A stretch of DNA of 64,000 nucleotides. Origin: an uncultured Anaerolineaceae bacterium. GTDB lineage: Bacteria > Chloroflexota > Anaerolineae > Anaerolineales > Villigracilaceae. Every line of letters starts with the position of its first letter. Position 1 is the stretch's first letter. The notes beneath the pieces were generated by a model. It did not search any database, was not told where the DNA came from, and saw only the letters and a list, made by a program, of their open reading frames with translations. Positions 1,280 to 43,438 of the stretch are shown in pieces. The position numbers and the translations under genes are program-made. The DNA is taken from the NCBI GenBank assembly GCA_964581545.1, contig CAZOOX010000001.1, positions 440 to 64,439 of the forward strand, given 5' to 3'.

Positions 1280-4846
<3,567 letters not shown>

Positions 4847-4862
4847 AACGATACTCCTTTAT

Positions 4863-5003
4863 TTTATTCTTCTCTGAATACCCCGTAGCTTGCTACGAGG
4901 GTTCCGAGCATTAAGAAAAATCTGTACCCGTAGGGGCAAAATTCCGTAATACCCCGTCCGCTTGCGGCGGGGATAGGAATTTTGAAGATTTTTCAAATTT
5001 ATT
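4863..5003 (+). repeat. 141-bp double-hairpin repeat element, copy A (identical to copy C)
   Basis: 141/141 nt identical to 38509-38649. Two hairpins, ACCCCGTAG-CTTG-CTACGAGGGT and CCCCGTCCG-CTTG-CGGCGGGG. Starts 6 nt upstream of the nifJ RBS, antisense to nifJ. Confidence 0.9.
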
Positions 5004-5024
5004 CAGTGTGCACTGTGCACACTG
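5004..5024. promoter_or_regulatory. perfect 10-1-10 palindrome, candidate operator
   Basis: CAGTGTGCAC-T-GTGCACACTG in the nifJ / NUDIX intergenic region, abutting repeat copy A. Confidence 0.35.
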
Positions 5025-5155
5025 CAAGATTAGAAAAATAAATTAATCACCATATAGTGTATTCTTTTGCGCCATATTTAGGAAGTTACCTATGGCTAAA
5101 AAACACTTGCGACTTGTCATAGTTTAGTCGAAGGTGATTAACAGAACTTTATCAA

Positions 5156-5698
5156 CTATTTCAGATAGGGATGCAAGTGTGGACGTGCCATCAGTAAAGC
5201 TGCCAGCGTTTTCGCATCTGGCATTTGGCCTGCTTCCGCTATGGCCAGAGCCTCTGCGACGGGAATTTTCTCCACATCCAGAAATTCGTCTGCATCAGGA
5301 GTCAGGGGGTTATCATATAGGTCCGTTGCTAAAAAGACAGTCATCAACTCAGTTGAATAACCGGGGGCGAGGTAAAATTTTCCCAATTCGACAAGTTTTT
5401 TGGCTGCCATGCCTGTTTCTTCTCGCAGCTCTCGTCCTGCACAATGAGCAGGGTCTTCGTCAGGAGCGTCTAGCGTTCCAGCGGGGAGTTCGAGCAAGTC
5501 CTCAACTGCGGCATGGCGATATTGTCGTACGAGCAGCAAATTTCCATCATTATCAATAGCCAGGATAACAACAGAACCATGATGTTCGACGATGTCAAAT
5601 TTAGTTATCCGCCCGTCGGGGGTTCGCAAATTATCTCGTCGAATAGTAAATACTCGCCCCTTAAAAATTTTTTCTGAACTAAGTAGTTTGAATTTCAT
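5156..5698 (-). CDS. NUDIX hydrolase (ADP-ribose pyrophosphatase-like)
   Basis: Nudix box GTLDAPDEDPAHCAGRELREETG. ATG at 5698 has GGAG upstream, so the track start at 5722 is less likely. Confidence 0.85.
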   Translation of the reverse strand: MKFKLLSSEKIFKGRVFTIRRDNLRTPDGRITKFDIVEHHGSVVILAIDNDGNLLLVRQYRHAAVEDLLELPAGTLDAPDEDPAHCAGRELREETGMAAKKLVELGKFYLAPGYSTELMTVFLATDLYDNPLTPDADEFLDVEKIPVAEALAIAEAGQMPDAKTLAALLMARPHLHPYLK

Positions 5699-6626: not shown

Positions 6627-8630
6627 TTATGGGGAACAACCCAATTCTTCTCGCATATTCTGGGCGATATTTTCGCCCTTTATATTGCCTATTTCTGCTT
6701 CTGCGCGTGCCCATAATTGACATAAGCCTTTACGCAATCGCGGCTCTTTTTGAATGGCTGTTTTCGATAGATTTTCTGCTCGTTCCAAATTTTCTGTATA
6801 AGCATAGCCTTCAATAAAGGGCAGCCACTCAAAAGCATCAACTGGATGATAAGCTTGCGCTTCTGCTTCATCGCCTAAACGCACAACTTCTTCCCAATCC
6901 CCTTGTTGGCGGGCTAGCTCGGCTTTGGTGGAGTAATAGCACCATTTATGGGCAGGCTCTTTGCCAAATAGTGATGCGGGGATGTCCGGACTCTCCACAT
7001 CAGCCAAAATTCGGGAAGGGTCAGAAAGGTAAATTGCGTCGGTCAGGAAATCATCTTCTTTTTTATAAGTGTGGGCGTTTGCGTAAACCGAATCCAGAAC
7101 ACGCAGACAGCCATTTTTAGGTGCATAAATAACGATAGCCGCAGAAGTGTTTCCTTCAAATTGCACCGTGCGATAAGGCACTCTAATGAGTGTGTCCCTT
7201 TCCAATGAGGGCAGGGTATAGCCGCCAAGCCTTTTCTCTGTATTCACAAAAGCATAAGGCAGTAGATCACCAGCCTGATAATCGGGCGCATAGATCCAAT
7301 TCAGAGGGGCGGTCATGGCTTGGTCGCTTTCGTATACCATCGGCAACTCATGCGTGATAAGGGCTGTGCCTTCCTTCATTGCAGGGATGCGCCAAGTGAG
7401 TTGCCAGGCTAAATTCTTTTGTCGTTCCCAGTCGCGGCGGAATTCGTTTGCATAGAAGAACTGCTGCCCAATGGCCAGCGCAAGGAGTCCACTCAAAATC
7501 AGATTTCGCCATTTTTCATTCTTTATTAGAAGCTCTATCAGACCTGCCACGAGTAATGCTGAAGCGAACATAATAGAGATGGTTAGGCGATCAAAGGTAT
7601 TTCCGATCTTTAGTGGCAAGCCTGCCAAAAAGGAGGGAATACGACCCAGAAAAATACCAACAAAACCGATAAAAATGGCTTGTCTTGCCCAGAGATACTT
7701 ATTGGCGTTAGATTCCAGGAGCAGGTTTTGACGGTAGATGATGAAGAGGGCAAATGCTAATATAACGAGACCCAGCCCAAGGATCGAGGTCGGCGCGGTT
7801 GGTGAATCCAAAAAATGGGGGATGAATTGAGTCCAGATCATCCAGAGGGATTTATAGAGCAAATCCCAAATCCCCATGAGAAGCTCGGCGAATACGCTCG
7901 TGTTTGAACCTGATGCCACGCTATAAGAATCGTACCCGCCTCGAGTGTAATAATAGACGAGCCAGCCTGCGTTTGCCAGCCAGAGCGTGAGATAGGGTAG
8001 CCATCGTTTTGCCGTCTCTTTCACCCGCATCCAGAATTTTGGCACTGTTTCGCCAAGCATGAAAAAGATGAAAAGGGCGCGTAATGGTTCAATGCTGACG
8101 AAGTATTCGGTGGGGAAAAGCCCCCAATACATGAGCAGGAGCGCGAGCGCTGTTTTTTGCCATTTACGAGTGTGAATAGCTTGCGCCGTTAGCCCAAAAG
8201 AGAGCAAATAGGCGATGAGTGAAACCCATTCCTGATTGATATGCGTGAGCGCGACCCATTGCTGGCTGTAGCCGGGATAAAGGAGAAAGAGCAGGCTAAC
8301 GGCGAGATTTTGGGCTTTGTTTTTCTCCCAAATCTGGTTGAGTGCCCACCACGTCGTTAGCGCGCTGAAAAAACGGATAACCAGCCCAAATATCTGCCAG
8401 ACAAAGGGGATGGGTGGAATGATGCTTGTTGTGAGTACAAATATTGGCGCAATAAAAGGACGGAAGGGCGCAAAGGCGGGGATAAATTCAGCGGGGCCAA
8501 GAAAATTGCCGATCCAGGCGAAGGCCCAGTCATCCCAATGAAAACCGACCCAGGGAGTGAGAAGACCGTAGGCTAGAAGAGTCAGGAGAGCAAAGAGAGC
8601 GGGGATAGATTTTTGGGTGAATTTTGGCAT
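6627..8630 (-). CDS. polytopic membrane protein, GT-C (ArnT/PMT-like) glycosyltransferase fold suspected, soluble C-terminal domain
   Basis: About 12 hydrophobic segments followed by a roughly 250-aa hydrophilic tail. The family assignment rests on architecture only. Confidence 0.55.
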   Translation of the reverse strand: MPKFTQKSIPALFALLTLLAYGLLTPWVGFHWDDWAFAWIGNFLGPAEFIPAFAPFRPFIAPIFVLTTSIIPPIPFVWQIFGLVIRFFSALTTWWALNQIWEKNKAQNLAVSLLFLLYPGYSQQWVALTHINQEWVSLIAYLLSFGLTAQAIHTRKWQKTALALLLMYWGLFPTEYFVSIEPLRALFIFFMLGETVPKFWMRVKETAKRWLPYLTLWLANAGWLVYYYTRGGYDSYSVASGSNTSVFAELLMGIWDLLYKSLWMIWTQFIPHFLDSPTAPTSILGLGLVILAFALFIIYRQNLLLESNANKYLWARQAIFIGFVGIFLGRIPSFLAGLPLKIGNTFDRLTISIMFASALLVAGLIELLIKNEKWRNLILSGLLALAIGQQFFYANEFRRDWERQKNLAWQLTWRIPAMKEGTALITHELPMVYESDQAMTAPLNWIYAPDYQAGDLLPYAFVNTEKRLGGYTLPSLERDTLIRVPYRTVQFEGNTSAAIVIYAPKNGCLRVLDSVYANAHTYKKEDDFLTDAIYLSDPSRILADVESPDIPASLFGKEPAHKWCYYSTKAELARQQGDWEEVVRLGDEAEAQAYHPVDAFEWLPFIEGYAYTENLERAENLSKTAIQKEPRLRKGLCQLWARAEAEIGNIKGENIAQNMREELGCSP

Positions 8631-18268: not shown

Positions 18269-18342
18269 GGGCGCTTAGCTCAGTTGGTTAGAGCACCTCG
18301 TTTACACCGAGGGGGTCGGGGGTTCGAGTCCCTCAGCGCCCA
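18269..18342 (+). tRNA. tRNA-Val (anticodon TAC)
   Basis: Hand-folded cloverleaf. Acceptor GGGCGCT/AGCGCCC, D arm GCTC..GAGC, anticodon arm CCTCG-TTTACAC-CGAGG, T arm GGGGG-TTCGAGT-CCCTC. 74 nt, CCA not encoded. Confidence 0.9.
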
Positions 18343-32030: not shown

Positions 32031-33123
32031 GTCTATCGCCGCAGAACTCCTAACTTGGTATCACCAAAATAAACGCACCCTTCCGTGGAGGAATCATCCT
32101 GACCCTTATGCTGTTTGGGTCTCGGAGATCATGCTCCAGCAAACGCGCGTGGACACAGTCGTCGACTATTTTATGCGGTGGATGGAGAAATTCCCGTGCA
32201 TTGAAGACTTAGCCGCTGTCGATGAACAAGATGTTTTGAACCTATGGGAAGGGCTTGGCTATTATAGCCGTGCCCGGAATTTGCATAAGGCGGCAAAACT
32301 TCTTGTAGAGAGTTCCCTCTCCCCTCGGGAGTACCCTAAAGAGTATAAAAGGGCGGGGGGTGAGGGCAGAGCGCAACTCCCGGAAGACACAAAATCTTTG
32401 CAAAAACTCCCCGGTATCGGGCGTTATACAGCCGCCGCTATCTCTTCGATGGCATTCGGGCACGATGCCGCTGCGCTGGATGGAAATATCCGTCGCGTTT
32501 ATGCGCGGGTATTTAATGTTGAAGAAGTTCTAGGAACAAGAGATGCTGAGAAAATTTTGTGGGGAATTGCCGAAGATATTTTGCCAAAGGGCGAAGCGGG
32601 TGACTATAACCAAGCTCTAATGGATTTAGGTTCAGCGATTTGTACGCCGCGTAACCCTTCTTGTGATAAATGCCCGCTCAACGAATTTTGCGAAGCCTAT
32701 CAACTTGATATTCAGGAAATGCGCCCTGTACGAAAGACAAAGAAAGCTGTGCCGCATCATGTTCATGCGGGGGCGGTGATCGTAAAAAAGGGGCGGGTTT
32801 TGCTCGCTCAACGCCCCAAAAAAGGTTTATTGGGCGGGATGTGGGAGTTTCCTAATGGGCGGATCGAAGAGAATCCTGCTCAGGAACTGGCGATTTTGAT
32901 TTGGGAGGGCTATCAAGTTAAAATCCGGGTAGGGAATCCGCTGGGGAAAGTTGACCATGCGTACACTCACTTCAAAATAACGGAATATGCTTTTCTTTGC
33001 ACGATGTCTGGATCATCCATTAAAGAGAATATGCGATGGGTTGGCTTGAAAGATCTGGATGATTACCCGATGGGAAAAGTGGATCGAGAGATAGTGAAAA
33101 TGCTAGGAGACAATGATGCCTGA
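32023..33123 (+). CDS. mutY: A/G-specific adenine DNA glycosylase with NUDIX-like C-terminal domain
   Basis: LPWR..DPY.VWVSEIMLQQTRV, GLGYYSRARNLH, LPGIGRYTAAAI, Fe-S cluster C..C..C...C (CTPRNPSCDKCPLNEFC). ATGA overlap with the upstream gene. Confidence 0.9.
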   Translation: MSKSIAAELLTWYHQNKRTLPWRNHPDPYAVWVSEIMLQQTRVDTVVDYFMRWMEKFPCIEDLAAVDEQDVLNLWEGLGYYSRARNLHKAAKLLVESSLSPREYPKEYKRAGGEGRAQLPEDTKSLQKLPGIGRYTAAAISSMAFGHDAAALDGNIRRVYARVFNVEEVLGTRDAEKILWGIAEDILPKGEAGDYNQALMDLGSAICTPRNPSCDKCPLNEFCEAYQLDIQEMRPVRKTKKAVPHHVHAGAVIVKKGRVLLAQRPKKGLLGGMWEFPNGRIEENPAQELAILIWEGYQVKIRVGNPLGKVDHAYTHFKITEYAFLCTMSGSSIKENMRWVGLKDLDDYPMGKVDREIVKMLGDNDA

Positions 33124-34726
33124 TTTGATTTTATTTAACGGAAAATTACACACTCAAGATGAAAAATATCCCAATGCGAGTGCAATCGCACTACGAGATG
33201 GGAGGATTTTTACGGTGGGAAGTGACGCTGAAATTAAAGCATTGGCAGGTGAGAAGACAGAGAGAATTGATTTGCAAGGCAAACGCGTTTTACCCGGGCT
33301 GACTGATTCTCACATCCATTTTTACGAATGGGCTTTGCTATTGCGTGGGATCATGCTCGAAGATACTCGCTCTCTGGATGAAGTACAAAAACTTGTGCAG
33401 GATGCGGTAAAAAGGCAAAAAAGCGGCTCGTGGATCATTGGACAGGGCTGGAATCAGGATAATTGGGAGGAGCCGCGAACGCCTACAAAGGCAGACCTGG
33501 ACGAAATAGCTCCTGAAAACCCCGTTATTTTGTGGCGCAAAGATCTGCATTTGGCTTTGGTCAATTCGACCGCGCTAAATTTGGCAGGGATTGACGCCAA
33601 AACACCCGACCCCGCGATGGGTGTGATCCAGCGTGATGAAAATGGCGAGCCAAATGGCTTGCTGAACGAGTTGGCAATTAATCTGGTACGCGCGGTAATG
33701 CCAATTCCCGCCAACGAAGTGACAGATGCCGCAATGCAAAAGACCATGACACGGCTTCATGCGCTTGGTATCACGGGCGTTCATGATTTTCGGATCATGG
33801 GCGGCGAGAGCGGCGCAACTGCTTTTCATGCTTTTCAGCGTTTGCATGCCAAAAAGCAACTTAAATTACGCGCTTTGGTTATGTTGCCCGGCGAGTTTGC
33901 TGAGCAAGCGGCAAAGACCGGCTTAGAAAGCGGTTTTGGTGATGATTTTTTGCGTGTTGGCGGTATCAAACTTTTTTCGGATGGGGCGTTGGGTCCGCGC
34001 ACAGCGTGGATGCTTGAGAATTTTGAAAATGAATCGCATACGGGTATGCCTCTCACGCCGATGAGCGAAATGGCAGAAAAAATCGCCCTTGCCGAAAAAT
34101 CGGGGCTGAGCACCACGATCCACGCGATTGGCGACCGTGCCCTTCGAGAGCTGTTAGATGTTTATGCAGAAATTTTGGATGGAAATATCCATGAGCAGGA
34201 TGCCCGCCCCAAACATCGGATAGAGCATGTGCAGCATAGCCACCCCGATGATTTGGCGAGACTCGCTCCTTTGGGCTTGGTTGCCTCCGTTCAACCTTTG
34301 CACCTGACCGAAGATATGGATATGGTCGATAGCGTCCTCGGCATGGGACGCGCCCGCTATACCTATGCCTTCCGTGACCTTTTGGATGCAGGCACGATCC
34401 TCGCATTTGGCTCCGATTGTCCCGTTGTCTCCCCGAATCCATTTTTAGGAATTCAAGGGGCTGTAACCCGCCAACGAGATGATGGTACACCCGCCGAAGG
34501 CTGGTTCCCTTCCCAGCGGTTAACGGTAGAAGAATCGGTTTTTGCCTATACAATGGGCGCAGCCATCGCCGCCGGGACAGATGATATACAAGGCAGCTTA
34601 TCCCCTGGCAAAGTAGCGGATTTGGTTGTTTTGGAAGATGACATTTTTGAAATCCCGCCACTGGGGATTGGGAAGACAAAGGTGAAGATGACTGTTTTTG
34701 ATGGGGAGGTTGTTTATAGAGGATGA
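33113..34726 (+). CDS. amidohydrolase family protein (Amidohydro_3 / YtcJ-like)
   Basis: 537 aa. LPGLTDSHIHF metal-binding motif near the N-terminus and HAIGDRA / GSDCPV motifs. Confidence 0.85.
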   Translation: MMPDLILFNGKLHTQDEKYPNASAIALRDGRIFTVGSDAEIKALAGEKTERIDLQGKRVLPGLTDSHIHFYEWALLLRGIMLEDTRSLDEVQKLVQDAVKRQKSGSWIIGQGWNQDNWEEPRTPTKADLDEIAPENPVILWRKDLHLALVNSTALNLAGIDAKTPDPAMGVIQRDENGEPNGLLNELAINLVRAVMPIPANEVTDAAMQKTMTRLHALGITGVHDFRIMGGESGATAFHAFQRLHAKKQLKLRALVMLPGEFAEQAAKTGLESGFGDDFLRVGGIKLFSDGALGPRTAWMLENFENESHTGMPLTPMSEMAEKIALAEKSGLSTTIHAIGDRALRELLDVYAEILDGNIHEQDARPKHRIEHVQHSHPDDLARLAPLGLVASVQPLHLTEDMDMVDSVLGMGRARYTYAFRDLLDAGTILAFGSDCPVVSPNPFLGIQGAVTRQRDDGTPAEGWFPSQRLTVEESVFAYTMGAAIAAGTDDIQGSLSPGKVADLVVLEDDIFEIPPLGIGKTKVKMTVFDGEVVYRG

Positions 34727-34750
34727 CAGCGGTTTGGGAGACCGCCACCA
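34725..34750 (+). repeat. cassette-boundary direct repeat, copy 1
   Basis: GACAGCGGTTTGGGAGACCGCCACCA. Its first two bases complete the amidohydrolase TGA stop. Confidence 0.9.
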
Positions 34751-34863
34751 ACAAATCGTAGACGGCGTGACCACCAATTACACCCTTGATCTGAATACTG
34801 GTTTGACGCAGGTTTTGGCTGACGGGACGAACACTTATCTCTACGGAAACGGGCGCATTTCCC

Positions 34864-34891
34864 AATCCCAAATCACCAATCACCAATCACC
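34864..34891 (+). repeat. 7-nt microsatellite (AATCACC x3 plus a degenerate copy) inside the RHS fragment
   Basis: AATCCCA AATCACC AATCACC AATCACC, in frame (21 nt), replacing the segment seen in cassette 2. Confidence 0.8.
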
Positions 34892-35325
34892 TGAGTATTT
34901 CCTTGGCGATGCTTTGGGGTCTGTGCGCCAATTGGCAGATCCTACGGCGGCGGTGACATTGACACAGAGCTACTCCCCCTATGGCGAGGTGGCTTTCAAT
35001 GCGGGTAGTGGATATAGCATATTTCAATACACAGGTGAAGCCAGAGATGCAAATGGGCTAACGTACTTGCGGGCGAGGTATTATGCTCCGCAGGATGGGC
35101 GGTTTATCTCGAGGGATACTTGGAATGGTGTCTATGAAAGACCATTATCACTAAATCGCTTGTGAACAGTGTTTAGCAGATGAAACATTACCTCAAAACT
35201 TTTGCTATATAACGGGAATTTGTTGTGACAGAGAAAAAGTATGTTGGGGAAAGGAGGTCCAAGAACGATTTGGGATTACTCTTTCCAATGATGAAGGGAA
35301 AGGGTGGACATGTCAAAACGCTCAT

Positions 35326-35862
35326 TTGGTCTATGACAGTCTTGCACGTATTGATGGCGTTCTGGGATTCCGTCTAAAAGCAATTGTAGGAGGAGGAACT
35401 TGGATAGTGACAGAATATGAAGGTAAAAAGGGTTATAACGCAAGAACAAGCGGAACAAACGTCGATTTTAGAACTAAAGGAGGGCAATTCATTCGCCAGA
35501 TAAACGTTTATCATGAATTTGGTCATGTACTTGATAACTCACCAGGAAAGGCAAATATATTTTCAAATGCACTTGCGACAAGACATAAATTTGAACCCAA
35601 TTTCATAAATGACGCTGGTTTTCTTGAGAAAGCTTCCTTAAAAACTCAGTTTGTTTTTGACCCTAACTACGGTACAGCCGAAGCATTGCAACATCCAGAC
35701 ACAGATACTGTAGAGCATTGGGCAGATGTCTTTGCCAACTACGTTGCAGGAAACATAAGAGGTAATATGGCAGACATGGTAAGGCTGGAAGAGTTTCAAA
35801 AAAGCCCCGGGCAATTGATGTATGATTTTGCATATTGGGCCATAACTGTTCACGCTAGATAG
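35326..35862 (+). CDS. HExxH zinc-metallopeptidase-like domain, probable displaced RHS C-terminal toxin
   Basis: HEFGH at residues 63-67 and a downstream E-H-W-A-D-V-F motif. The frame is open from 35155, 8 nt before the RHS-frame stop, and the only start candidate is TTG at 35326. Confidence 0.5.
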   Translation: MVYDSLARIDGVLGFRLKAIVGGGTWIVTEYEGKKGYNARTSGTNVDFRTKGGQFIRQINVYHEFGHVLDNSPGKANIFSNALATRHKFEPNFINDAGFLEKASLKTQFVFDPNYGTAEALQHPDTDTVEHWADVFANYVAGNIRGNMADMVRLEEFQKSPGQLMYDFAYWAITVHAR

Positions 35863-35872
35863 GAGGCAAGCA

Positions 35873-36724
35873 ATGAAACTCATACATCTTTTGATTTTCC
35901 CTGTAATTCTTCTCGGGTGTAGTTTGCATTCAACCACTTTACCTACACCTTCTTCTCCTGTGCATATTACACCAACATATTCTCTTTCGCATCCCCCCCC
36001 CGTGACGACACATCTCCCCTCTCCAGAGATAATATTGCAACCTACATTAGTGCCACAACAGGCTGAAAACGTGATGAGAGCCCTACTAATAAATGCTGAA
36101 GAAGATTGCCTTGCTCCTTGTTTTTGGGGTATTACTCCAGGACAAACATCCTTTGATGAAGCTAAACAAATATTTACCTACTTAGGATTGCATTCCGCTA
36201 TAGCATCTGCCGAGAATAATAGACAAGTGTATTACCCTAATTACAGTTTTGATAATGGTTTATCTGTTAACTTATCTGTTGTAATATACGATAACATTGT
36301 TGAAAGCGTGGAGGTGTTTATTGAACTTGAGAATTTTTCTGCGAGAGAGGCACAAGAACGGTTAGCATACTCACCTGAAGTACTAATCCACCGCTATGGC
36401 ACACCTTCAAGAGTAGAGTTTTTTATTGGGATGGTTGATACTCCTCACAGCTTGCATAGTATGGTGATGTACTTTGATACTGTAGACCTAATAGTAGAAT
36501 ATTCAAACGAAAAAGATAGTGCTGATTTTCTTGTTTGCCCTCTGACAGATCAACAGAACATTTGGGTTAGGCTTTGGTTTGGTGAGGAGCCTCTATACCC
36601 TCCTCTTCCGTTGGTTGCATTAGACGAAGCTACTTCAATGACATTGAATGAGTTTTCCAATTTGATGATGGACAATCCTGAAGATGCTTGCATTGATTTA
36701 AAACCATATTATTCAAATCATTAA
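35873..36724 (+). CDS. lipoprotein, candidate cognate immunity protein
   Basis: GGAGG lies 7 nt upstream. Lipobox ILLGCS. Starts 10 nt after the toxin-domain stop. Confidence 0.55.
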   Translation: MKLIHLLIFPVILLGCSLHSTTLPTPSSPVHITPTYSLSHPPPVTTHLPSPEIILQPTLVPQQAENVMRALLINAEEDCLAPCFWGITPGQTSFDEAKQIFTYLGLHSAIASAENNRQVYYPNYSFDNGLSVNLSVVIYDNIVESVEVFIELENFSAREAQERLAYSPEVLIHRYGTPSRVEFFIGMVDTPHSLHSMVMYFDTVDLIVEYSNEKDSADFLVCPLTDQQNIWVRLWFGEEPLYPPLPLVALDEATSMTLNEFSNLMMDNPEDACIDLKPYYSNH

Positions 36725-36796
36725 CGAGAAAAAGCTGCCTTAAAAGAAAGAGCAAATGAGTCAGCGGTCTAAGAGACTGTTACTCTAAAACTATTT

Positions 36797-36824
36797 GACA
36801 GCGGTTTGGGAGACCGCCACCAGC
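36797..36824 (+). repeat. cassette-boundary direct repeat, copy 2
   Basis: GACAGCGGTTTGGGAGACCGCCACCAGC, identical over 28 nt to copy 3. Confidence 0.9.
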
Positions 36825-38107
36825 AAAACGGCGTAAATTACACACTTGATCTCAACACTGACTTGACCCAGGTTTTGGCTGACGGAACGAACACTTATCT
36901 CTATGGAAATGGCAGAATAGCGCAAGCTGACAGCACAACAGAATACTTCCTTGGCGATGCTTTGGGGTCTGTGCGTCAGTTGACTGATCCTGCTAGTGCG
37001 GTGACTCTTACGCAGAGCTATGCGCCTTATGGAGAAGTCACGCAATCTGTTGGCACATCTCAAACCAGCTACGCTTTTACAGGCGAAACGAGAGATGAAA
37101 ATGGGTTAACATTTTTGCGGGCGCGGTATTTGGATAGCAACACAGGGCGCTTTACGCAGAGAGATCCTTCAAGGCTAGAAGCTAATCTATATTTATATGC
37201 ACAGGCAAATCCTGTCAACAGGATTGATCCTACAGGGTTATTTAGCGATAGTCAAATAGCATACAGTCTTGGTGAGCCTGAAGGAGACTTTGAATATAAT
37301 CTCAATTGGTTTGACAGACAAGGGGATGAGCGATGGGGGTTCTTGGCCTTACTCATGGATGCAGAAGATGGAGATACGATAACAGGCGTTTCGCTTGAAA
37401 AATATGGAGAGGTTTCCACATACCCGTTAGGGCAGTTGTATTCTATCGGTGGTTGCTCAATAGCTATTTTAGGCTCAGGAAGCTTCTTCATACCGGACTA
37501 TATAAGAGATTTGCCCTCCATAGCAAAACAAAAAGGCAGGTTAGATATTCCACCATGGCGCTCAGTTGTACAAAGATACCAATTGGACGGTAAAGGGAGC
37601 TACCAAGATACACATTACACTGATTTGCCTGATTTTTATGTAGCTAGTATAGGGCTTGAGCTCAATGTCAAATATGGAGGTACTATTCAGTACCTCCATA
37701 TTCAAGATCGCTTTGGGAACAATTACAATGGTGTAAATCTTGCTGCTAGTGTTGGGCTTTCACGTACGCTAAATGAGTACCAGGAAGGTTATTATTTACC
37801 TTCTAATCAAGGATTTACACGTACAAGTTCTGAAAGCGAGTTGATAAGTAAAATTACAGGAGTCTCCTTCCCCGTTTTTGGTTATGGTTTCTTAATACGA
37901 AAGGGAGGATCGGCAAACATAAATCTACGTCGTGGAGTTGTAGTCACTTATAATGAAGCTATGTGGGATTTTATAAGTTTAGGTATTGGCGGATCTTTTG
38001 TTTGGAGAGCAGAAGGTACGGGGTCGGAAGGTTGGAACCATCTTAATAAAATACGTGGCTATGATAGAGTATCTGTTATATACAGCAGACTTTATGGTAT
38101 ACGCTAA
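36806..38107 (+). CDS. orphan RHS-core tail with intact DPxGL motif fused to a ~289-aa C-terminal domain of unknown family (putative toxin)
   Basis: RHS tail ..YLYGNGRIAQ..EYFLGDALGSVRQLTDP..LRARYLDSNTGRFTQRD..ANPVNRIDPTGL (DPTGL at 37226-37240). No ATG. The frame is open from 36773 and the first start-like codon is the TTG inside the repeat. Confidence 0.7.
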   Translation: MGDRHQQNGVNYTLDLNTDLTQVLADGTNTYLYGNGRIAQADSTTEYFLGDALGSVRQLTDPASAVTLTQSYAPYGEVTQSVGTSQTSYAFTGETRDENGLTFLRARYLDSNTGRFTQRDPSRLEANLYLYAQANPVNRIDPTGLFSDSQIAYSLGEPEGDFEYNLNWFDRQGDERWGFLALLMDAEDGDTITGVSLEKYGEVSTYPLGQLYSIGGCSIAILGSGSFFIPDYIRDLPSIAKQKGRLDIPPWRSVVQRYQLDGKGSYQDTHYTDLPDFYVASIGLELNVKYGGTIQYLHIQDRFGNNYNGVNLAASVGLSRTLNEYQEGYYLPSNQGFTRTSSESELISKITGVSFPVFGYGFLIRKGGSANINLRRGVVVTYNEAMWDFISLGIGGSFVWRAEGTGSEGWNHLNKIRGYDRVSVIYSRLYGIR

Positions 38108-38191
38108 ACGAGCTTTGTCTGAAGAAATAAAATAAGATCACAAGCAGATGTCTAAGCATGAGAGCCAAAACGAAAAAAGGTAAGTAGTAAA

Positions 38192-38560
38192 ATGAAAAAT
38201 AATAAATTCTGGTTTTTTATCCTAAAAGCTCTTAAACGAAAGCGAAATAGAACAACTCTTTATTTTTTTATCTTTTTGATATTACTTGGAGGCCTCTTTG
38301 AACCTACAGGTAATATAATGACGGGTAGTTTTTTATCCGATTCGTTTGGAGCAACTGGACTTGGCGGATTATTTTTATCTTTGGGAATTCAAGTGCGTTC
38401 TGAGCTCCCATCTCCTCCTTTTGAAAACCCTGATTATATTACATACCATATGATCAGCCTTATATGGATAATTGGAGGTATCGCGGTTTTTTTTGCGTAT
38501 ATAAAACATTTATTCTTCTCTGAATACCCCGTAGCTTGCTACGAGGGTTCCGAGCATTAA
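38192..38560 (+). CDS. small polytopic membrane protein, candidate immunity protein
   Basis: 122 aa with three hydrophobic segments. The last ~17 codons and the stop lie in repeat copy C. Confidence 0.55.
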   Translation: MKNNKFWFFILKALKRKRNRTTLYFFIFLILLGGLFEPTGNIMTGSFLSDSFGATGLGGLFLSLGIQVRSELPSPPFENPDYITYHMISLIWIIGGIAVFFAYIKHLFFSEYPVACYEGSEH

Positions 38561-38649
38561 GAAAAATCTGTACCCGTAGGGGCAAAATTCCGTAATACCC
38601 CGTCCGCTTGCGGCGGGGATAGGAATTTTGAAGATTTTTCAAATTTATT
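38509..38649 (+). repeat. 141-bp double-hairpin repeat element, copy C
   Basis: Identical to 4863-5003. Confidence 0.9.
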
Positions 38650-38820
38650 TCCTTTTTTAAAGCTACATATCTGAAATGCCGCCTTGTAATTTAGTCGGAA
38701 AGGAAAAGTAACTCCCTTTCCTAACCGCGCAAAAAGTACTATGAGGCTTTATTTGCACAGATGTGATGGAAAGTCAATAAGGTAATTTGGTTACGAATGC
38801 AATTGCGCGAATTTTCCTTA

Positions 38821-38848
38821 GACAGCGGTTTGGGAGACCGCCACCAGC
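38821..38848 (+). repeat. cassette-boundary direct repeat, solo copy 3
   Basis: GACAGCGGTTTGGGAGACCGCCACCAGC followed by non-RHS sequence and the gltA terminator. Confidence 0.9.
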
Positions 38849-38854
38849 GTAAAT

Positions 38855-38893
38855 AAAAAGAGCAGACTTTGCGAAAAAATCTGCTCTTTTTAT
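38855..38893. terminator. bidirectional intrinsic terminator (ends gltA)
   Basis: AAAGAGCAGA-12 nt-TCTGCTCTTT with flanking A and T runs. Confidence 0.8.
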
Positions 38894-38911
38894 TTGTATC
38901 TTTTTCGTTAT

Positions 38912-40210
38912 TTACTTAGCTGCAATATCTTCCAACATTGCGGTTGTGAGTGATTTCGGTCGTTCAAGGGGTTGACCAAGAGCACGTGCCCAAACGTAGT
39001 TGGCGGTTACGCCGAGGGCGCGGCCAACACCGAAGAGAACGGTGTAGAAATCAACTTTGTTGATTCCATAGTGGTATTGAAGTGCACCACTGACAGCATC
39101 TACATTAGGCCAAGGATTCTTGGCTTTACCCTGTTCTTTTAGTACAGAGGGGATAACGTCATCCATAAGTTCGACGATCTTGAAAAGCTCGTCATCGGCG
39201 AAGTGTTTCTTGCCAAAGTTGAACTGTTGGGTATATCGGGGATCGGGAACGCGCAAAACAGCGTGCCCATAACCGGGGATAACGCGGCCACTATTGAGTG
39301 TATCCCAGGCATATTGGGTCAATTCTTTTTTGGTCGGTACGCCGCCAAATTCCTCTTGAATACCCATCACAAAAGCCAGGCAGTTTTGATTCGCCAAACC
39401 GTGCAAAGGACCAGCCAAGCCGTTCATTGAAGAAGAGAAGGCGTAGAAAATATCGGCGAGTGATGAGCCAACCAGGTGCATGGTGTGGGCGCTAACATTG
39501 CCTGATTCATGGTCTGCATGCAGGATGAAATAGAGGCGAGCCATATCTTCATATTTTTTATCTTTAACACCCATCATGCGGGCAAAATTTGCACCATAAT
39601 CTGCTTTGGGGTCATAGAATGGTTCGCCCTTATCGCCGTATTTCAAACGATAAATAAAGGCAGCGATAACGCCCAATTTACTGGTCAGGTACATTGCGTC
39701 GTCCAAAGCGGGTCGCCACAAAGCTTTTTTGCTCATGCCTTCAGCATAGCGTTTTGCAAATTTCGATTCCACTTGAAGGCTCAAAATGGCTTGGGAGAAA
39801 AGAGCCATCGGGTGTGTATCATTAGGCATGCCACGTAATATCTTGAAAACATGCTCTGGTACTTCACTGGCCCTTGCCCATTCTGCTTCAACTTCTAATG
39901 CCTGTTCTTCAGTAGGAAATTCGCCAACCATAAGTAAGTAATAAAGACCGCCTACATAGGGTATTTCAGCGCCTTCTGGTTTTGGCAATTTCTCCAAGAC
40001 AACAGGAAGTGTGTGTCCACGATAGCGGATGCCTTCGTTAGGGTCAACAAAAGAAATATCCGTTACAAGGGCTTTTACGCTTCGCATACCGCCATAAATT
40101 TGGCTGATGGTCACTTCACCCGCTACTTTATCGCCATTCTCTTTCAATAGTTTTGTGACACGAGTACGCCAACTCTCTAATTGTGCATCTATTTTGTTGT
40201 GTAATATCAT
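38912..40210 (-). CDS. gltA: citrate synthase
   Basis: 432 aa. LHADHE..NVS, GPLHGLANQ and PGYGHAVLR signatures. Confidence 0.9.
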   Translation of the reverse strand: MILHNKIDAQLESWRTRVTKLLKENGDKVAGEVTISQIYGGMRSVKALVTDISFVDPNEGIRYRGHTLPVVLEKLPKPEGAEIPYVGGLYYLLMVGEFPTEEQALEVEAEWARASEVPEHVFKILRGMPNDTHPMALFSQAILSLQVESKFAKRYAEGMSKKALWRPALDDAMYLTSKLGVIAAFIYRLKYGDKGEPFYDPKADYGANFARMMGVKDKKYEDMARLYFILHADHESGNVSAHTMHLVGSSLADIFYAFSSSMNGLAGPLHGLANQNCLAFVMGIQEEFGGVPTKKELTQYAWDTLNSGRVIPGYGHAVLRVPDPRYTQQFNFGKKHFADDELFKIVELMDDVIPSVLKEQGKAKNPWPNVDAVSGALQYHYGINKVDFYTVLFGVGRALGVTANYVWARALGQPLERPKSLTTAMLEDIAAK

Positions 40211-41211: not shown

Positions 41212-41362
41212 ATCTCCTCCAATGGAAATTAAAAATTATTATACAAAAAGTAACCGTCCAATCAGTTACAAAATAGCCTGTGTAAGAATACTATATTGTG
41301 CTTTTAGCGAATAGTTTATTTTGTCATATTTTGAATATGTGAAAATGATACCAGATACTCAT

Positions 41363-41401
41363 AAAAAAAGAAGTTTTGACACAAACTTATGTCAAAACTT
41401 C
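41363..41401 (-). terminator. intrinsic terminator after trxB
   Basis: GAAGTTTTGACA-loop-TGTCAAAACTTC, with a U-run on the minus strand. Confidence 0.8.
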
Positions 41402-41416
41402 CTTGTGTTGAAAAAG

Positions 41417-42358
41417 CTACAAACCTTTTTCCTCGATATAGCGGATGGCCTGGATAGCCGCCCCCGCGCCCATTCCTGCAGATGTGATCACCTGTCTGAA
41501 ATGCGGATCAGCGACTTCGCCCGCTGCGTAAACGCCCTCGATTTGGGTTTGCATCAGCCCATCAACAACGATGTAGCCTTGATCATCGAGGGCCAATTTT
41601 CCTTCGAAAAGCTCAGTATTTGGCGTATGACCAATAAAGATGAAAACACCCTCGGTTTCGATAGCAGATTCTGCTCCGGTCTTCACGTTTTTAACTTTAA
41701 CGGTATCAACTTTCTCTCCGGTAGGGATTTCAATGAGAACCGTATCCCAGACGAAGTGAATTTTCGGGTTCTCCTCTGCGCGCTTTTTGAGAATCGACCC
41801 GGCTCTTAATTCATCCCGCCTGTGGGCGATAGTTACTTTGCTGGCATGGCGTGTCAGGTAAAGGGCTTCTTCGAGCGCACTATCTCCACCGCCGACGACG
41901 AGTACATCCATATCTCCGAAAAAGTGTCCGTCACAAGTAGCGCAGTACGATACACCGCGCCCAATCATCTCTTCTTCGCCGGGAATATCAAGCGTGACCG
42001 CTGCTGCGCCAGTCGTGATAATGAGCGTATCGGCTGTAAATTCTTCGCCATAGGTTTTGACCTTATAAGGCTTTTCAGAAAAGTCAACTTCGGTCGCTAG
42101 ATCGAAGATCACCTCTGTACCAAAGCGTTCTGCCTGCTCATGAAAAGCCTTCACCAAACCCTCGCCAGAAATGCCTTCAGGGAAGCCGGGATAATTCTCT
42201 ACAGCGTGTGTTTTTGAAACTTGCCCGCCTAGGTCCATGCCCGTTAATACAATAGGGTCAAGATTTGCCCGCGCGGCATAAAGCGCAGCCGCCAGCCCGG
42301 CAGGCCCAGAGCCAATGATAAGAATTTTTGTGTGGCGGGGTGTGCTTTCTTCTGTCAT
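41417..42358 (-). CDS. trxB: thioredoxin-disulfide reductase, NADPH-type
   Basis: IIGSGPAGLAAALYAAR, redox CATCDG, VVGGGDSALEEA, HRRDELRA. Confidence 0.9.
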   Translation of the reverse strand: MTEESTPRHTKILIIGSGPAGLAAALYAARANLDPIVLTGMDLGGQVSKTHAVENYPGFPEGISGEGLVKAFHEQAERFGTEVIFDLATEVDFSEKPYKVKTYGEEFTADTLIITTGAAAVTLDIPGEEEMIGRGVSYCATCDGHFFGDMDVLVVGGGDSALEEALYLTRHASKVTIAHRRDELRAGSILKKRAEENPKIHFVWDTVLIEIPTGEKVDTVKVKNVKTGAESAIETEGVFIFIGHTPNTELFEGKLALDDQGYIVVDGLMQTQIEGVYAAGEVADPHFRQVITSAGMGAGAAIQAIRYIEEKGL

Positions 42359-42469: not shown

Positions 42470-43438
42470 TTATAAGTTTTGCAAATACTCTCTTATCGCA
42501 ACAGCTGCTTTTGCACCATCACCTACTGCAACTGCAATCTGTGCCAGATTTTCTGAAACAACATCACCTGCAGCGAAGATGCCGGGGACAGAGGTTTTCA
42601 TATGTTTATCAGCGATGATATAGCCATAATCATCAAGGTTGACCAAACCCTCTACAAAGCTGGTATAAGGTTTATAGCCAACATAAATGAAAATTGCTGC
42701 AGCGGGAATTTCTACAAGCTCGTCCGTTTCGCGGTTTTTGACAACCAAAGATTTGACTAATTTTTCACCTTTTACTTCTGTTGCCATATGCGAGAATTTG
42801 CAAACAGTCTTTTCGTGGCTCCTAACTCTATCCTGGAGAACTTGCTCGGCAATCGAATGATCCAGGAATTCGACAAAGGTTACTTTTTTGGCATATTCGA
42901 GCAAAATTTCTGCTTCTTGTAAGCCTGAATTCCCGCAACCGATAACGACCACCTCTTCATCTTTGTAGAGAGGCCCATCGCAAGTGGCGCAATAGGAAAC
43001 ACCTTTATTATAAAATTCTGCTTCGCCGGGAATGCCGAGCTTTTTTGGCTCGCTACCTGTTGCTAAAAGAACTGTGCGACCTTGGTAGCTTTTCCCCTCG
43101 TCTGTTTCGATGGTGAAAACGCCATCTTCACCTTTTGAGATGTTTTTTACGCCGTCAAATTCTTCGAGCACTGCGCCAAAGCGTTCTGCCTGCTTCTGGA
43201 AGTTTTCCATTAGGACAGGCCCCTCAACACCTTTCGGGAAGCCCGGGTAATTCTCGATCGAATGGGTTGTTGCCGCTAAGCCGCCGCTTGCTTCTTTTTC
43301 AAGGATAAGTGTTTTCCAGCCGTCGCGCGATGAATAAATAGCGGTTGTGAAGCCAGCCGAACCCGCACCAACGATAACAACATCGTAAACTTCGCTTTCG
43401 TCAGCGGCTTCTGAATTGTCTAAATTTAATGAGAACAT
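42470..43438 (-). CDS. thioredoxin-reductase-like flavoprotein lacking the HRRxxxR NADPH motif
   Basis: VIVGAGSAGFTTAIY, CATCDG, VIGCGNSGLQEA, but FLDHSIAEQ where the paralog has HRRDELRA. Confidence 0.7.
   Translation of the reverse strand: MFSLNLDNSEAADESEVYDVVIVGAGSAGFTTAIYSSRDGWKTLILEKEASGGLAATTHSIENYPGFPKGVEGPVLMENFQKQAERFGAVLEEFDGVKNISKGEDGVFTIETDEGKSYQGRTVLLATGSEPKKLGIPGEAEFYNKGVSYCATCDGPLYKDEEVVVIGCGNSGLQEAEILLEYAKKVTFVEFLDHSIAEQVLQDRVRSHEKTVCKFSHMATEVKGEKLVKSLVVKNRETDELVEIPAAAIFIYVGYKPYTSFVEGLVNLDDYGYIIADKHMKTSVPGIFAAGDVVSENLAQIAVAVGDGAKAAVAIREYLQNL

Follow-up and report, generated by a model that had tools for sequence, protein, structure and literature searches.

A repeat-bounded array of RHS toxin and immunity cassettes

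Within the 64-kb window (the whole stretch of DNA analyzed), an amidohydrolase gene and gltA flank two RHS toxin/immunity cassettes bounded by copies of a short direct repeat. On comparative sequence evidence, we consider it fairly likely that this locus is an integrase-less, site-bounded array serving recombinase-driven exchange of RHS toxin tips. The 26-mer GACAGCGGTTTGGGAGACCGCCACCA has exact matches at positions 34725, 36797 and 38821, all on the + strand, giving site-to-site spacings of 2072 and 2024 nt; no further copies with three or fewer mismatches were found in the 64 kb, and 100 shuffles of the window yielded 0 matches (chance expectation, none). The order is site, cassette 1, site, cassette 2, site, with all three sites direct. 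The similar sizes of the two units look coincidental.

Site 1 (34725..34750, + strand; left arm GACAGCGG, centre TTTGGGAGA, right arm CCGCCACCA) has its first base on the G of the amidohydrolase stop codon (TGA, 34724-34726) and is read +1 to the frame of that gene; its segment AGACAGCGGTTTGGGAGACCG is the same sequence as the site that a P0268-type integrase gene overlaps at its 3´ end. Sites 2 (36797..36824, + strand) and 3 (38821..38848, + strand) share the same 28 nt (..CCACCAGC), and on its reverse strand site 2 was scored as a terminator-like hairpin. Site 3 is a solo terminal copy: no RHS sequence lies 3´ of it, and it is followed after 5 nt by the gltA terminator, a 20-nt inverted repeat with T-runs. 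The three direct copies, the 28-nt identity, the off-frame overlap with the stop codon and the solo third copy just before the terminator had been described in an initial annotation of this DNA, and all were borne out, as were the RHS core tails that it had placed after copies 1 and 2. The ~0.4 kb following these two sites is 78-83% identical between units 1 and 2, and both units match the RHS repeat-associated core domain TIGR03696 in profile searches.

The cassette 1 tail (GLGDRHQQ...SLNRL and a stop, 34731..35165, + strand, from three-frame translations) matches only profile positions 1-52 of 76 (43 bits) and ends at 35165, short of the DPxGL cleavage motif. A toxin remnant with an HExxH motif (35155..35862, + strand) is open in a frame that differs from that of the tail, which marks it as either a detached fragment or a pseudogene. 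The remnant shares 41% identity with residues 217-421 of P0152, in which tail and toxin form one intact protein, and has no Pfam or PDB match. The candidate immunity gene that follows (35873..36724, + strand) has an AGGAGG 7 nt 5´ of its ATG and encodes a 283-aa predicted lipoprotein, with a signal-peptide-like N-terminus ending in Cys and no family match.

In cassette 2, a single tail-toxin ORF (36803..38107, + strand) matches the full TIGR03696 profile (positions 1-76 of 76, 69 bits), the core tail being intact to DPTGL (~37243) and fused to a 287-aa toxin domain, to which no type was assigned. The frame is open from site 2 to the stop at 38107, has an in-frame TAA upstream at 36770, and offers no ATG or GTG start. 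Over 433 aa the ORF shares 59% identity with P0121, encoded directly 3´ of the integrase in locus L052, and its toxin family is also C-terminal in the full-length RHS proteins P0168 (36%) and P0124 (30%); its tail is 81% identical at the nucleotide level to that of a full-length rhs gene in L026. The candidate immunity gene (38192..38560, + strand) encodes a 122-aa membrane protein, 33% identical to the 120-aa product of the gene after P0121 in L052. It is followed by a non-coding 3´ end (38561..38820, + strand) whose last ~49 nt are conserved ahead of a solo site at L013; this match covers 71 nt at 90% identity, from position -49 to position +22 relative to the site. GC content is lower inside the cassettes than in the flanking genes (0.36-0.45 versus 0.45-0.53). 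Of the two cassettes, the first has decayed and the second remains whole, although it has no start codon.

The missing start bears on whether the tail-plus-toxin ORFs might instead be stand-alone small toxins translated in place, with the site forming part of the translation start region. Copy 1 in L003 has GGGGGAAAG followed by an in-frame ATG TAC AGC GGT, many database ORFs start a few codons 5´ of GLGDRHQQ, and most close homologs are 300-500 aa long with the tail at the N-terminus. The window, however, provides no usable start: the ATG at copy 1 is off-frame by one base relative to L003, and copy 2 is preceded by the in-frame TAA. A signal peptide is absent, and the ~145 shell residues are too few to form the cage seen in RHS/Tc structures. 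Stand-alone toxins would also leave the solo copies and the integrase link described below without explanation, and we regard this possibility as decidedly unlikely.

The amidohydrolase-gltA hot spot

The array is anchored on the left by the amidohydrolase gene (33113..34726, + strand; PF07969, E 7e-116) and on the right by the citrate synthase gene gltA (38912..40210, - strand; PF00285). The terminator beside site 3, a bidirectional hairpin common to gltA (38851..38895; 20-nt arms, 95% complementary), is the only convincing + strand terminator 3´ of the amidohydrolase gene. Elsewhere the window carries housekeeping genes (PFOR, ABC transporters, DNA polymerase III delta, MutY, citrate synthase, malate dehydrogenase, thioredoxin reductase, PPDK and RtcB). 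The 64 kb contains no RHS shell or rhs body, secretion, conjugative or recombinase gene; that RHS shell, T6SS and recombinase genes are missing had been noted in the initial annotation.

A scan of GTDB (185,579 representative genomes) returned one match only, a solo copy in another Anaerolineae MAG. Among related contigs, an amidohydrolase ortholog (83% aa identity) in L011 is followed by cassette-type genes and a site, and gltA orthologs (90-93% aa identity) in L009 and L018 are preceded by a solo site, each of the three loci having different cassettes. Across these orthologs, the hot spot is conserved and its cassettes turn over; an intact rhs gene that had simply decayed at this position, which would have made the array ordinary erosion, was not seen in the relatives. 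Because L011 differs at the position of the site 1 left arm, the consensus left arm is, on this comparison, not ancestral chromosome sequence.

Conservation and distribution of the site

Most of the extra loci in related marine Anaerolineae contigs were retrieved with an exact 20-mer, so that motif identity is by construction and other right arms are under-sampled. In these contigs every detached RHS tail starts exactly at the site, upstream of which lies unrelated sequence, often with in-frame stop codons. Arrays end in a solo copy. Beyond the nine solo copies lies non-RHS sequence; all nine are cut within 20-27 nt, in unrelated intergenic contexts of several genomes. The layout of a solo site and then a terminator was also found in L002 and L020, and the repeat-cassette-repeat arrangement with a terminal solo copy, noted at the outset for the window, recurs at other loci. 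The site is present at loci without rhs sequence (L002 and L023), and in L043 the same left arm and centre border HigBA- and VapBC-type cassettes, which are not RHS. Only a single full-length rhs gene containing the site came to light, in L026, where ..TCGTACAAC/GGTTTAGGAGACCGCCACCA at position 11926 lies in frame and reads ..SYSYN/GLGDRHQ.. within a 3547-aa product with a signal peptide. Among seven tail copies chosen by protein homology, not by motif, no 20-nt window is better conserved than the site (mean pairwise identity 0.97 versus 0.72 for the tail), with invariant runs of 14 and 6 nt compared to at most 5 nt elsewhere.

These observations can be set against an ordinary orphan rhs-CT/immunity array, formed by homologous recombination (C-terminal displacement) and later decayed, in which the repeat would simply represent the most conserved YD-repeat codons (G-L-G-D-R) and the solo copies deletion remnants. 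The repeat does encode ..SGLGDRHQ.., which belongs to a YD repeat; in more distant homologs the sequence is Y-x-Y-N-G-L-G-D-R-L, and more repeats lie upstream. The tails are similar enough over 0.4 kb for RecA, and cassette 1 is decayed. In L025, moreover, tandem orphan tails have a different and longer boundary and no motif. We nevertheless consider this origin unlikely given the uniform cut of nine independent solo copies, the invariance confined to the site at synonymous positions too, and the palindrome completed by non-coding left arms (below). The same sequence also borders toxin-antitoxin cassettes and is found overlapping, or just 3´ of, a recombinase gene, and 17 of the 18 tail-bearing copies recovered with the RHS-type right arm, counting those that are cut off, have no upstream rhs body.

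It is very improbable that the sequence is a REP/MITE-like or IS-targeted repeat (RAYT, IS200/IS605 or an IS110 target) coincidentally beside rhs fragments. It can fold as a hairpin, solo copies lie between stop codons and terminators, and an IS110-family transposase gene is located ~240 nt from the L009 solo site, but that gene is present in only one of >20 loci and no RAYT or TnpA gene is nearby. In addition, the three copies in the window are all cassette borders, with none more at three mismatches, and a single match was found among the GTDB representatives; the genome-wide REP envisaged in the initial annotation as a refutation did not materialize. These comparisons mark the site as a DNA unit in its own right, neither a mere run of conserved YD-repeat codons nor a REP.

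Palindrome and junctions

Some copies read TGGTGGCGGT-TTGGGAG-ACCGCCACCA and form an 11-bp stem (-12.8 kcal/mol, z = -7), in which the left arm is non-coding and completes a perfect palindrome. The hairpin had at first been considered a possible trivial effect of the G-L-G-D-R codons, a view contradicted by this non-coding arm and by the occurrence of the site outside RHS frames, including between toxin-antitoxin cassettes. Head-to-head pairs of the form TTTRGGAGACC-N10-11-GGTCTCCYAAA were found exactly at convergent-cassette junctions in L026 and L043. The predicted dyad architecture fits a simple tyrosine-recombinase site, and two different dyad readings of the site both fit the data.

In two contig pairs, a common upstream cassette extends to ..TTGGGAGACC(G) and is followed by different cassettes. 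Between L022 and L043, 675 nt ending in ..TTTGGGAGACCG match at 97.5% identity, after which an RHS tail follows in L022 and other sequence in L043. Between L016 and L043, the match covers 121 nt at 94% identity, ends in ..GGAGACC and gives way to the same kind of divergence. A dedicated search for a contig pair with one rhs body and two different tips gave only short fragments, and neither excised circles nor swaps were seen.

An Xer-like recombinase gene beside the site

The site lies at the 3´ end of an Xer-like tyrosine recombinase gene in five variants that are 64-100% identical (L026, 100%; L039, 90%; L052, 73%; L040-42, 70%; L043-46, 64%). The stop codon and the site are 7-8 nt apart in four of the five, and the L043-46 integrase ORF runs through the site. 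Four integrase-site contigs end inside or just past the site, as expected for a multi-copy repeat. The recombinase matches PF00589 and scores ~128 bits with the XerC/XerD/XerA models, below their cut-offs; its nearest solved structures are XerC-like, XerD and XerA. Multi-site arrays directly adjoin the integrase gene in L052 and L043, the L052 order (integrase, site, cassette, site, next tail) being the window layout beside an integrase, and in L026 an inverted site pair adjoins the recombinase gene. The in-frame rhs copy, the adjacency to the recombinase gene and the breakpoints at cassette junctions all agree with the earlier proposal that the repeat is a recombination point.

The recombinase gene is preceded by a conserved, conjugative-element-like block of ParA, VirB11-like ATPase, AAA_10 and TraG/VirD4-like genes together with 94-aa, 419-aa and ~190-aa genes. 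The site might thus be a mere ICE attachment site in an rhs tail, with the repeats as att scars, the cassettes immobile and no tip exchange. It is common for integrative elements to insert in the 3´ part of conserved genes, leaving a partial direct repeat behind, and integrase relatives at 55% identity are ordinary island integrases beside tRNA 3´ ends, without such a site. However, integration and then excision restores one site and builds no multi-cassette arrays, whereas such arrays lie directly beside the integrase gene. The joining of one upstream cassette to different downstream cassettes and the presence of the site at rhs-free loci likewise speak against a simple attachment site, which we consider rather unlikely. 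Since the site both adjoins a recombinase gene and lies in frame in an rhs gene, movement of the toxin tips probably depends on site-specific and not on homologous recombination.

Comparison with known systems

Previous work has described orphan modules of the rhs-CT/rhsI and cdiA-CT/cdiI kinds as well as the C-terminal displacement of Rhs toxins (PMC3150448, PMC3967940, PMC3482391). As in orphan rhs-CT/rhsI modules, the start-less units consist of a short rhs core piece, a polymorphic toxin domain and an immunity gene, and would be silent alternatives to the expressed tip. Unlike those modules, the array is detached and lies between housekeeping genes, its units share one fixed start nucleotide, it closes with a solo copy, and its boundary is linked to a tyrosine recombinase gene.

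The array also resembles integrons and CALINs, attC clusters lacking an integrase (PMC4889954), for which cassette insertion outside att sites is known as well (10.1101/2022.09.11.507474). Shared features are co-oriented, mostly promoterless cassettes each bounded by a recombination site, the inclusion of toxin-antitoxin cassettes, and the existence of arrays that adjoin a tyrosine recombinase gene (L052 and L043) alongside others with none nearby (the window). In contrast to integrons, the recombinase is Xer-like and not IntI (28.5 bits with TIGR02249, cut-off 265) and is co-directional with the array, with the site at its 3´ end. The site is short and conserved instead of a variable attC hairpin and lies inside a coding frame, such that insertion would give an in-frame fusion.

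In the rAID clusters of Bacteroidales and XerC/D-linked polyimmunity loci (PMC12247911, PMC3482391), a tyrosine recombinase gene is likewise followed by co-oriented short genes of interbacterial toxin systems with conserved intergenic motifs. rAID arrays, however, hold orphan immunity genes for defence, whereas the cassettes here are complete toxin tips with the end of the RHS shell, and the toxin gene itself contains the site as well; the likeness is one of layout, and the phylum is a different one. Short sites inside an ORF, with one arm conserved and the other variable, and an inverted site pair beside the recombinase gene (L026) recall shufflons and other systems that switch C-termini. In the R64 shufflon, Rci acts on sfx sites in pilV, switching C-terminal segments on a constant N-terminal part. 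The window differs in that its three sites are direct, predicting excision and integration and not inversion, and in that each cassette brings an immunity gene of its own and cassettes are scattered over remote loci. Inversion isomers were not seen.

CIMEs, which are formed or moved by ICE accretion, and integrative elements at the 3´ ends of genes (PMC5704250) offer a further parallel: att-type direct repeats flank DNA without its own recombination or transfer genes, tandem arrays share one site, and a terminal partial copy of the target gene remains. The units here are 2-kb single-function cassettes and not decayed islands, and the target is an internal, in-frame position in a toxin gene, where an integration event would alter the encoded protein.

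A proposed route for toxin-tip exchange

We infer that an Xer-like recombinase acts on the 26-28 nt direct repeat, which would be its core recombination site, and that this genome also encodes the recombinase and a partner rhs gene. Each cassette would start just 3´ of ..GGAGACC and comprise the last ~145 RHS shell codons, the toxin domain and the immunity gene; as a full-length rhs gene carries the same site in frame (..Y-N-G-L-G-D-R-H-Q..), a cassette could enter there. Recombinase supplied in trans could excise the cassette as a circle, which could integrate at the rhs site and replace the tip, or could invert the cassette where sites are inverted. The immunity genes are probably expressed in place by read-through from the amidohydrolase gene, because they have their own ribosome-binding sites and no terminator follows that gene ahead of the gltA hairpin. 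The idea of a silent cassette store exchanging with a distant rhs locus, advanced in the initial annotation, gained comparative support from the related contigs, although the window itself holds neither rhs body nor recombinase gene. By the proposed route, an rhs body would gain a new tip together with the matching immunity gene, the old tip would be displaced, and the array at the present locus would constitute a silent store of toxin tips.

Three direct repeats bracket two rhs C-terminal cassettes

The initial annotation had described a triple direct repeat between an amidohydrolase gene and the gltA terminator, and we recovered the 26-mer GACAGCGGTTTGGGAGACCGCCACCA at window positions 34725, 36797 and 38821 (sites 1, 2 and 3), all on the plus strand, with copies 2 and 3 the same over 28 nt and spacings of 2072 and 2024 nt, as claimed. 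Allowing three mismatches gave no extra copy in the 64 kb, and shuffled sequence gave zero matches. The proposed overlap with the amidohydrolase stop codon in another frame was borne out, as site 1 starts at the G of the TGA in the +1 frame. Also as annotated, sites 1 and 2 each open a ~0.4 kb end of an RHS core (hereafter tail), with 78-83% identity between the units and matches to TIGR03696 in both, whereas site 3 is a solo copy without RHS sequence, directly followed by the bidirectional gltA terminator. The claim that the 64-kb window lacks an RHS shell, a secretion gene and a recombinase likewise held; neither tblastn with the integrase of the related locus L026 nor Pfam scans of the larger ORFs, all housekeeping, detected a recombinase in the window. 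The remaining genes are housekeeping genes: PFOR, transporters, holA, mutY, gltA, mdh, trxB, PPDK and rtcB. Two adjacent minus-strand genes (41417-42358 and 42470-43438) resemble pyridine-nucleotide-disulphide oxidoreductases or thioredoxin reductases, and a 162-aa ORF at 41321-41809, overlapping the first of these on the opposite strand, is probably spurious.

The two units, each comprising a tail, a toxin and a candidate immunity gene, differ in integrity. Unit 1 is damaged: its tail stops at 35165 (..RPLSLNRL, then a stop codon), before the DPxGL motif and covering only profile positions 1-52 of 76, and the toxin ORF with an HExxH motif (35155-35862) lies in a different frame. This ORF shares 41% identity with the toxin part of P0152, an intact tail-plus-toxin protein. 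The gene after it has a good ribosome-binding site and encodes a predicted lipoprotein of 283 aa. Unit 2 is intact: its reading frame continues from the repeat past DPTGL and across a toxin domain of 287 aa to 38107, and a gene for a 122-aa membrane protein follows. The unit is start-less, as the annotation had it, with an in-frame TAA upstream at 36770 and no ATG or GTG start. The cassette 2 toxin family is also found C-terminally in the full-length proteins P0168 and P0124. Searches of Pfam, NCBIfam and PDB sequences for a toxin function returned only the HExxH motif and, in a related cassette, DUF6973.

The cassette interiors are richer in AT than their flanks. From the amidohydrolase gene to the hairpin that follows copy 3, no good-quality plus-strand terminator was found, and the immunity genes would be expressed by read-through. 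On the minus strand (36796-36822), the reverse complement of site 2 plus AATAGTTTTA scores as an intrinsic-terminator-like hairpin of 10 pairs, which could block antisense transcription into cassette 1. A two-cassette array like that of the window is present in L003, a contig from the same sample. At its copy 1 (8199-8209), GGGGGAAAG is followed by ATG TAC AGC/GGT, in frame with the tail; the window reads AGG ATG ACA GC/GGT at 34723-34731, with the ATG overlapping the amidohydrolase stop as ATGA. The window copy is one base shorter, and its ATG is therefore out of frame.

The site recurs at cassette borders in related Anaerolineae

We looked for the site in other genomes. A GTDB scan with a 22-mer across 185,579 representative genomes gave one match, in another Anaerolineae MAG. 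This is a solo copy (AGACAGCGGTTTGGGAGACCGCCACCA) with a stop codon on one side and a terminator on the other, and no RHS sequence is close to it; viral contigs gave no match. Together, the fetched homolog loci and a metagenome scan with GGTTTRGGAGACCGCCACCA yielded more than 20 distinct copies on AT-rich Anaerolineae-like contigs, along with four GC-rich chance matches. Eighteen copies open an RHS tail or break off in an apparent one, with an rhs body upstream in one of the 18, and nine are solo copies, each followed by unrelated sequence. The arrangement of a cassette between repeats, the terminal repeat being a solo copy, was seen again in L005 and L020. Nearly all of the closest tail homologs start at ..GLGDRHQQ, and the residues before this point are unrelated. 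Ahead of the sites, homology usually spans 10 nt or less, so that a conserved cassette 3' arm is not general; longer stretches were seen only between L013 and window site 3 (49 nt) and between L009 and window site 2 (30 nt).

Conservation was measured on the seven tail copies recovered through protein homology alone, which avoids the ascertainment bias of motif-selected loci. In this set the site is conserved better than any other 20-nt window (0.97 identity versus 0.72 for the tail), with invariant runs of 14 and 6 nt versus at most 5 nt elsewhere. The repeat is a discrete unit and more than a stretch of RHS codons. The site-carrying RHS subfamily has D-R-H-Q where typical relatives have D-R-L-x-Q; this change creates the CCGCCACCA arm, which suggests selection acting on the DNA.

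The constant part of the site is (T/G)ACRRCGG-TTTRGGAGA-CCG, the left arm and centre following the pattern ACAGCGGTTTGGGAGACC, and RHS-type copies continue with CCACCA(RCAAAAY). Solo copies retain 7-14 nt of this right arm. The rhs gene has the left arm TACAAC, most detached copies have TACAGC or GACAGC, and copies beside integrase genes have TACGGC or TGCGCC; a further form, TGGTGGC, is a perfect inverted repeat of the right arm. The TGGTGGC form gives an 11-bp stem of -12.8 kcal/mol (z = -7), and the window form folds at only -5.1 kcal/mol (z = -2.1). Both a 10-7-10 dyad around TTGGGAG and TTTRGGAGACCG half-sites around a 6-10 nt spacer fit the site.

Two other explanations of the repeat were rejected. 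An att site mimicking a tRNA or tmRNA 3' end (..CCGCCACCA) was considered, but ARAGORN found only a tRNA-Val at 18269 and Rfam returned nothing at the sites. A REP/RAYT, MITE or IS target does not fit three copies in 64 kb, all at cassette borders, a single match among GTDB representatives, and an IS110 element in L009 only.

Some related loci differ in content or boundary. In L005, an AbiEii-like gene and a 73-aa gene (4677-5568, minus strand) lie immediately upstream of the first site, and protein P0018 carries this 73-aa sequence as an in-frame fusion after a truncated RHS tail; this suggests that toxin-antitoxin modules are inserted into or beside cassettes. L025 (GCA_015075725.1, a 4.7-Mb Anaerolineales contig) carries four tandem rhs tails at 10127, 11958, 14520 and 16371, which read ..YTYNGLGDRL.., share ~40 nt more upstream and lack the CCACCA arm. 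This is another kind of orphan array, with a boundary of its own, and may be of the homologous-recombination type.

The site lies in frame within a full-length rhs gene

An exhaustive HMMER search showed that most close relatives of the tail are 300-500 aa proteins with the tail at the N-terminus, and that a few are full-length, including P0124 (3547 aa), which has a signal peptide and carries ..YDISYSYNGLGDRHQI.. ~150 residues ahead of the toxin. In its locus L026, from a related organism, the exact 20-mer occurs in frame at 11926 (..TCGTACAAC/GGTTTAGGAGACCGCCACCA), and the site-carrying tail of the full-length gene shares 81% nucleotide identity with the window cassette 2 tail. A query with the P0124 body end for two tips on one rhs body returned only fragments of at most 333 aa and at most 60% identity. 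In all RHS queries, however, the word-indexed protein search listed only proteins of ~330 aa or less, while the exhaustive search with the same tail also gave proteins of 2000-4100 aa; long matches missing from the word-indexed search thus do not mean that full-length genes are absent. A partner rhs gene and a recombinase are presumably present in the window's genome.

The site adjoins a Xer-like recombinase gene

L026 contains a second site, on the opposite strand and 4.2 kb from the first. A detached tail-plus-toxin gene (373 aa) begins at this second site, and a candidate immunity gene (367 aa) comes next. Just upstream, 7 nt from the site, is the end of a recombinase gene (PF00589, 293 aa). 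The recombinase reaches ~128 bits with the XerC/XerD/XerA models, whose cut-offs lie far higher, and 28.5 bits with TIGR02249, the model for integron integrases (cut-off 265). Its nearest solved structures are XerC-like 4A8E, XerD 1A0P and XerA 5HXY; the recombinase is Xer-like.

This adjacency is retained across 64-100% recombinase identity. Homologs at 90%, 73% and 70% have the site 7-8 nt past the stop codon, and in a 64% homolog the ORF reads through the site (GTGCAGACAGCGGTTTGGGAGACCG/GGCTAACG), with the same left arm and centre as the window copies. Four recombinase contigs terminate within or right after the site, as expected because the site is a repeat. In all cases with upstream sequence available, the recombinase gene is the last of a conserved block containing genes for ParA, a VirB11-like ATPase, AAA_10 and a TraG/VirD4-like protein, along with 94-aa, 419-aa and ~190-aa genes, and the block looks like a conjugative or integrative element. 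Catalysis at the site by the Xer-like recombinase would be consistent with this arrangement.

Integrase relatives at 55% identity (P0274 and P0275, in L028-L038) were rejected as users of the site; these are ordinary island integrases at island edges beside tRNA 3' ends, with att sites of the tRNA type, and this site is absent. Their islands carry type I restriction-modification, DUF499/DUF1156, SNF2-helicase and HEPN genes and therefore look like defence islands of the same Anaerolineae populations.

Cassette arrays and breakpoints beside the recombinase gene

In L052 (GCA_029935755.1), the integrase gene is followed by a site, P0121 (431 aa, with 59% identity to the protein of window cassette 2), a membrane protein of 120 aa (33% identity to that encoded by the window's 122-aa gene), a second site and the next tail. 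This is the window architecture with the recombinase gene replacing the amidohydrolase gene. The order in L043 is integrase gene, site A, a HigBA-like pair, site B, a VapBC-like pair and site C, which lies head to head with an inverted copy. On the far side of this pair are an rhs N-terminal fragment of 92 aa and a gene homologous to the one that precedes rhs in L026. The fragment (2992-3267, minus strand) comprises only the first ~92 rhs codons, with 31% identity to the P0124 N-terminus and the head-to-head pair 50 nt on (compare L026 from 2713 onward), suggesting a site-associated deletion of nearly the whole rhs gene. The corresponding pair in L026, TTTAGGAGACC-N10-GGTCTCCTAAA, lies exactly at the junction of two convergent cassettes.

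Pairs of contigs diverge at the site. L022 and L043 share 97.5% identity over 675 nt up to ..GTTTACAGC(G/A)GTTTGGGAGACCG, past which an RHS tail follows in L022 and ATAGCTAACCGG in L043. L016 and L043 share 94% identity over 121 nt up to ..GGAGACC and then split likewise. In both pairs, therefore, a single upstream cassette has different neighbours downstream, with the switch at the right edge of GGAGACC(G); this would place the start of the RHS cassette at (G)CCACCAR.., within the Arg-His codons. Such breaks are what site-specific recombination predicts; assembly chimerism at the repeat is an alternative source of the same pattern, contigs being its basis. Under site-specific recombination, cassettes would be excised as circles and integrated, or inverted, and tips (the C-terminal toxin parts) would be replaced in frame.

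A hot spot between the amidohydrolase gene and gltA

The initial annotation had suggested seeking an empty amidohydrolase-gltA junction in relatives. None was found; all fetched relatives hold cassettes or a site there. L011 has orthologous mutY and amidohydrolase genes (83% aa identity) followed by an orphan lipoprotein gene, a site and a tail, and in L009 and L018 a solo site adjoins orthologous gltA and mdh (90-96% aa identity), with different upstream sequence. The array position therefore predates these lineages, while its contents turn over. On the strand opposite the solo site in L009 (ERZ890953 NODE_4849, oriented 196-1410), ~240 nt upstream, is an IS110-family transposase gene (PF01548, PF02371), the only one among the fetched loci. 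IS110 elements are often aimed at specific repeats, and this element may target the site or be incidental.

Relation to known cassette systems

The best-supported reading is that the window holds an integrase-less array of rhs C-terminal cassettes bounded by a recombinase site, comparable to CALINs among integrons and CIMEs among integrative elements. In this reading the array would be a silent store on which a recombinase-driven system of tip exchange draws. By content, the units fit orphan rhs-CT/immunity arrays, having an rhs core fragment, a C-terminal toxin and a small downstream gene with a ribosome-binding site, but they do not fit by position, being flanked by an amidohydrolase gene and gltA with no RHS shell in 64 kb. 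The likeness to integrons is in the working: the window has three direct sites and two co-oriented cassettes, as in a CALIN, for which a nearby integrase is dispensable, and L052 and L043 have cassette arrays beside an integrase gene. The difference is that the recombinase of the window system is not IntI; related loci have the Xer-like recombinase, the window has no integrase, and the site, probably not an attC, has no GTTRRRY core and takes palindromic forms in some copies only. As in CIMEs, the window units lack integration and transfer genes and share their site with the integrase-proximal end of a conjugation-like block; mobilisation by the recombinase of a helper element would be part of this likeness.

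In-frame site placement recalls shufflons, but all window sites are direct and no recombinase is present. L026 has an inverted pair beside its recombinase gene, for which no inversion isomer was seen. XerC/D genes have been reported beside polyimmunity loci (PMC3482391). The system would also operate in the manner of an rAID cluster (PMC12247911), for which a tyrosine recombinase gene upstream of a co-oriented array with conserved intergenic motifs is typical; this layout is seen in L052 and L043, though not in the window. In our literature search, no account of an rhs reading frame containing a recombinase site was found.

A possible platform for rhs tip exchange

With somewhat less than even confidence, we propose that marine Anaerolineae possess a non-integron cassette platform in which the Xer-like recombinase of a conjugative element would act on a ~27-bp site in the rhs reading frame, at a YD repeat ~150 codons ahead of the toxin, for programmed tip exchange. 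The recombinase would plug cassettes of shell end, toxin and immunity gene in and out, with inverted sites allowing flipping; the same sites would also hold toxin-antitoxin cassettes, and would seed integrase-less stores, such as the window array, at chromosomal hot spots. With a site this short and defined, the proposal can be tested directly, and a recombinase that joins cassettes in frame could have practical use.

The current explanation for how Rhs and other polymorphic toxins diversify is homologous recombination with adjacent orphan cassettes. If the proposal is correct, a dedicated recombinase site in the rhs frame would add another mechanism, a programmable one, accounting for the movement of tips and immunity genes among loci and genomes and for the sharp boundaries of orphans. 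Cassette biology of the integron kind would also come to include a Xer-type recombinase, an understudied phylum and the in-frame swapping of protein domains.
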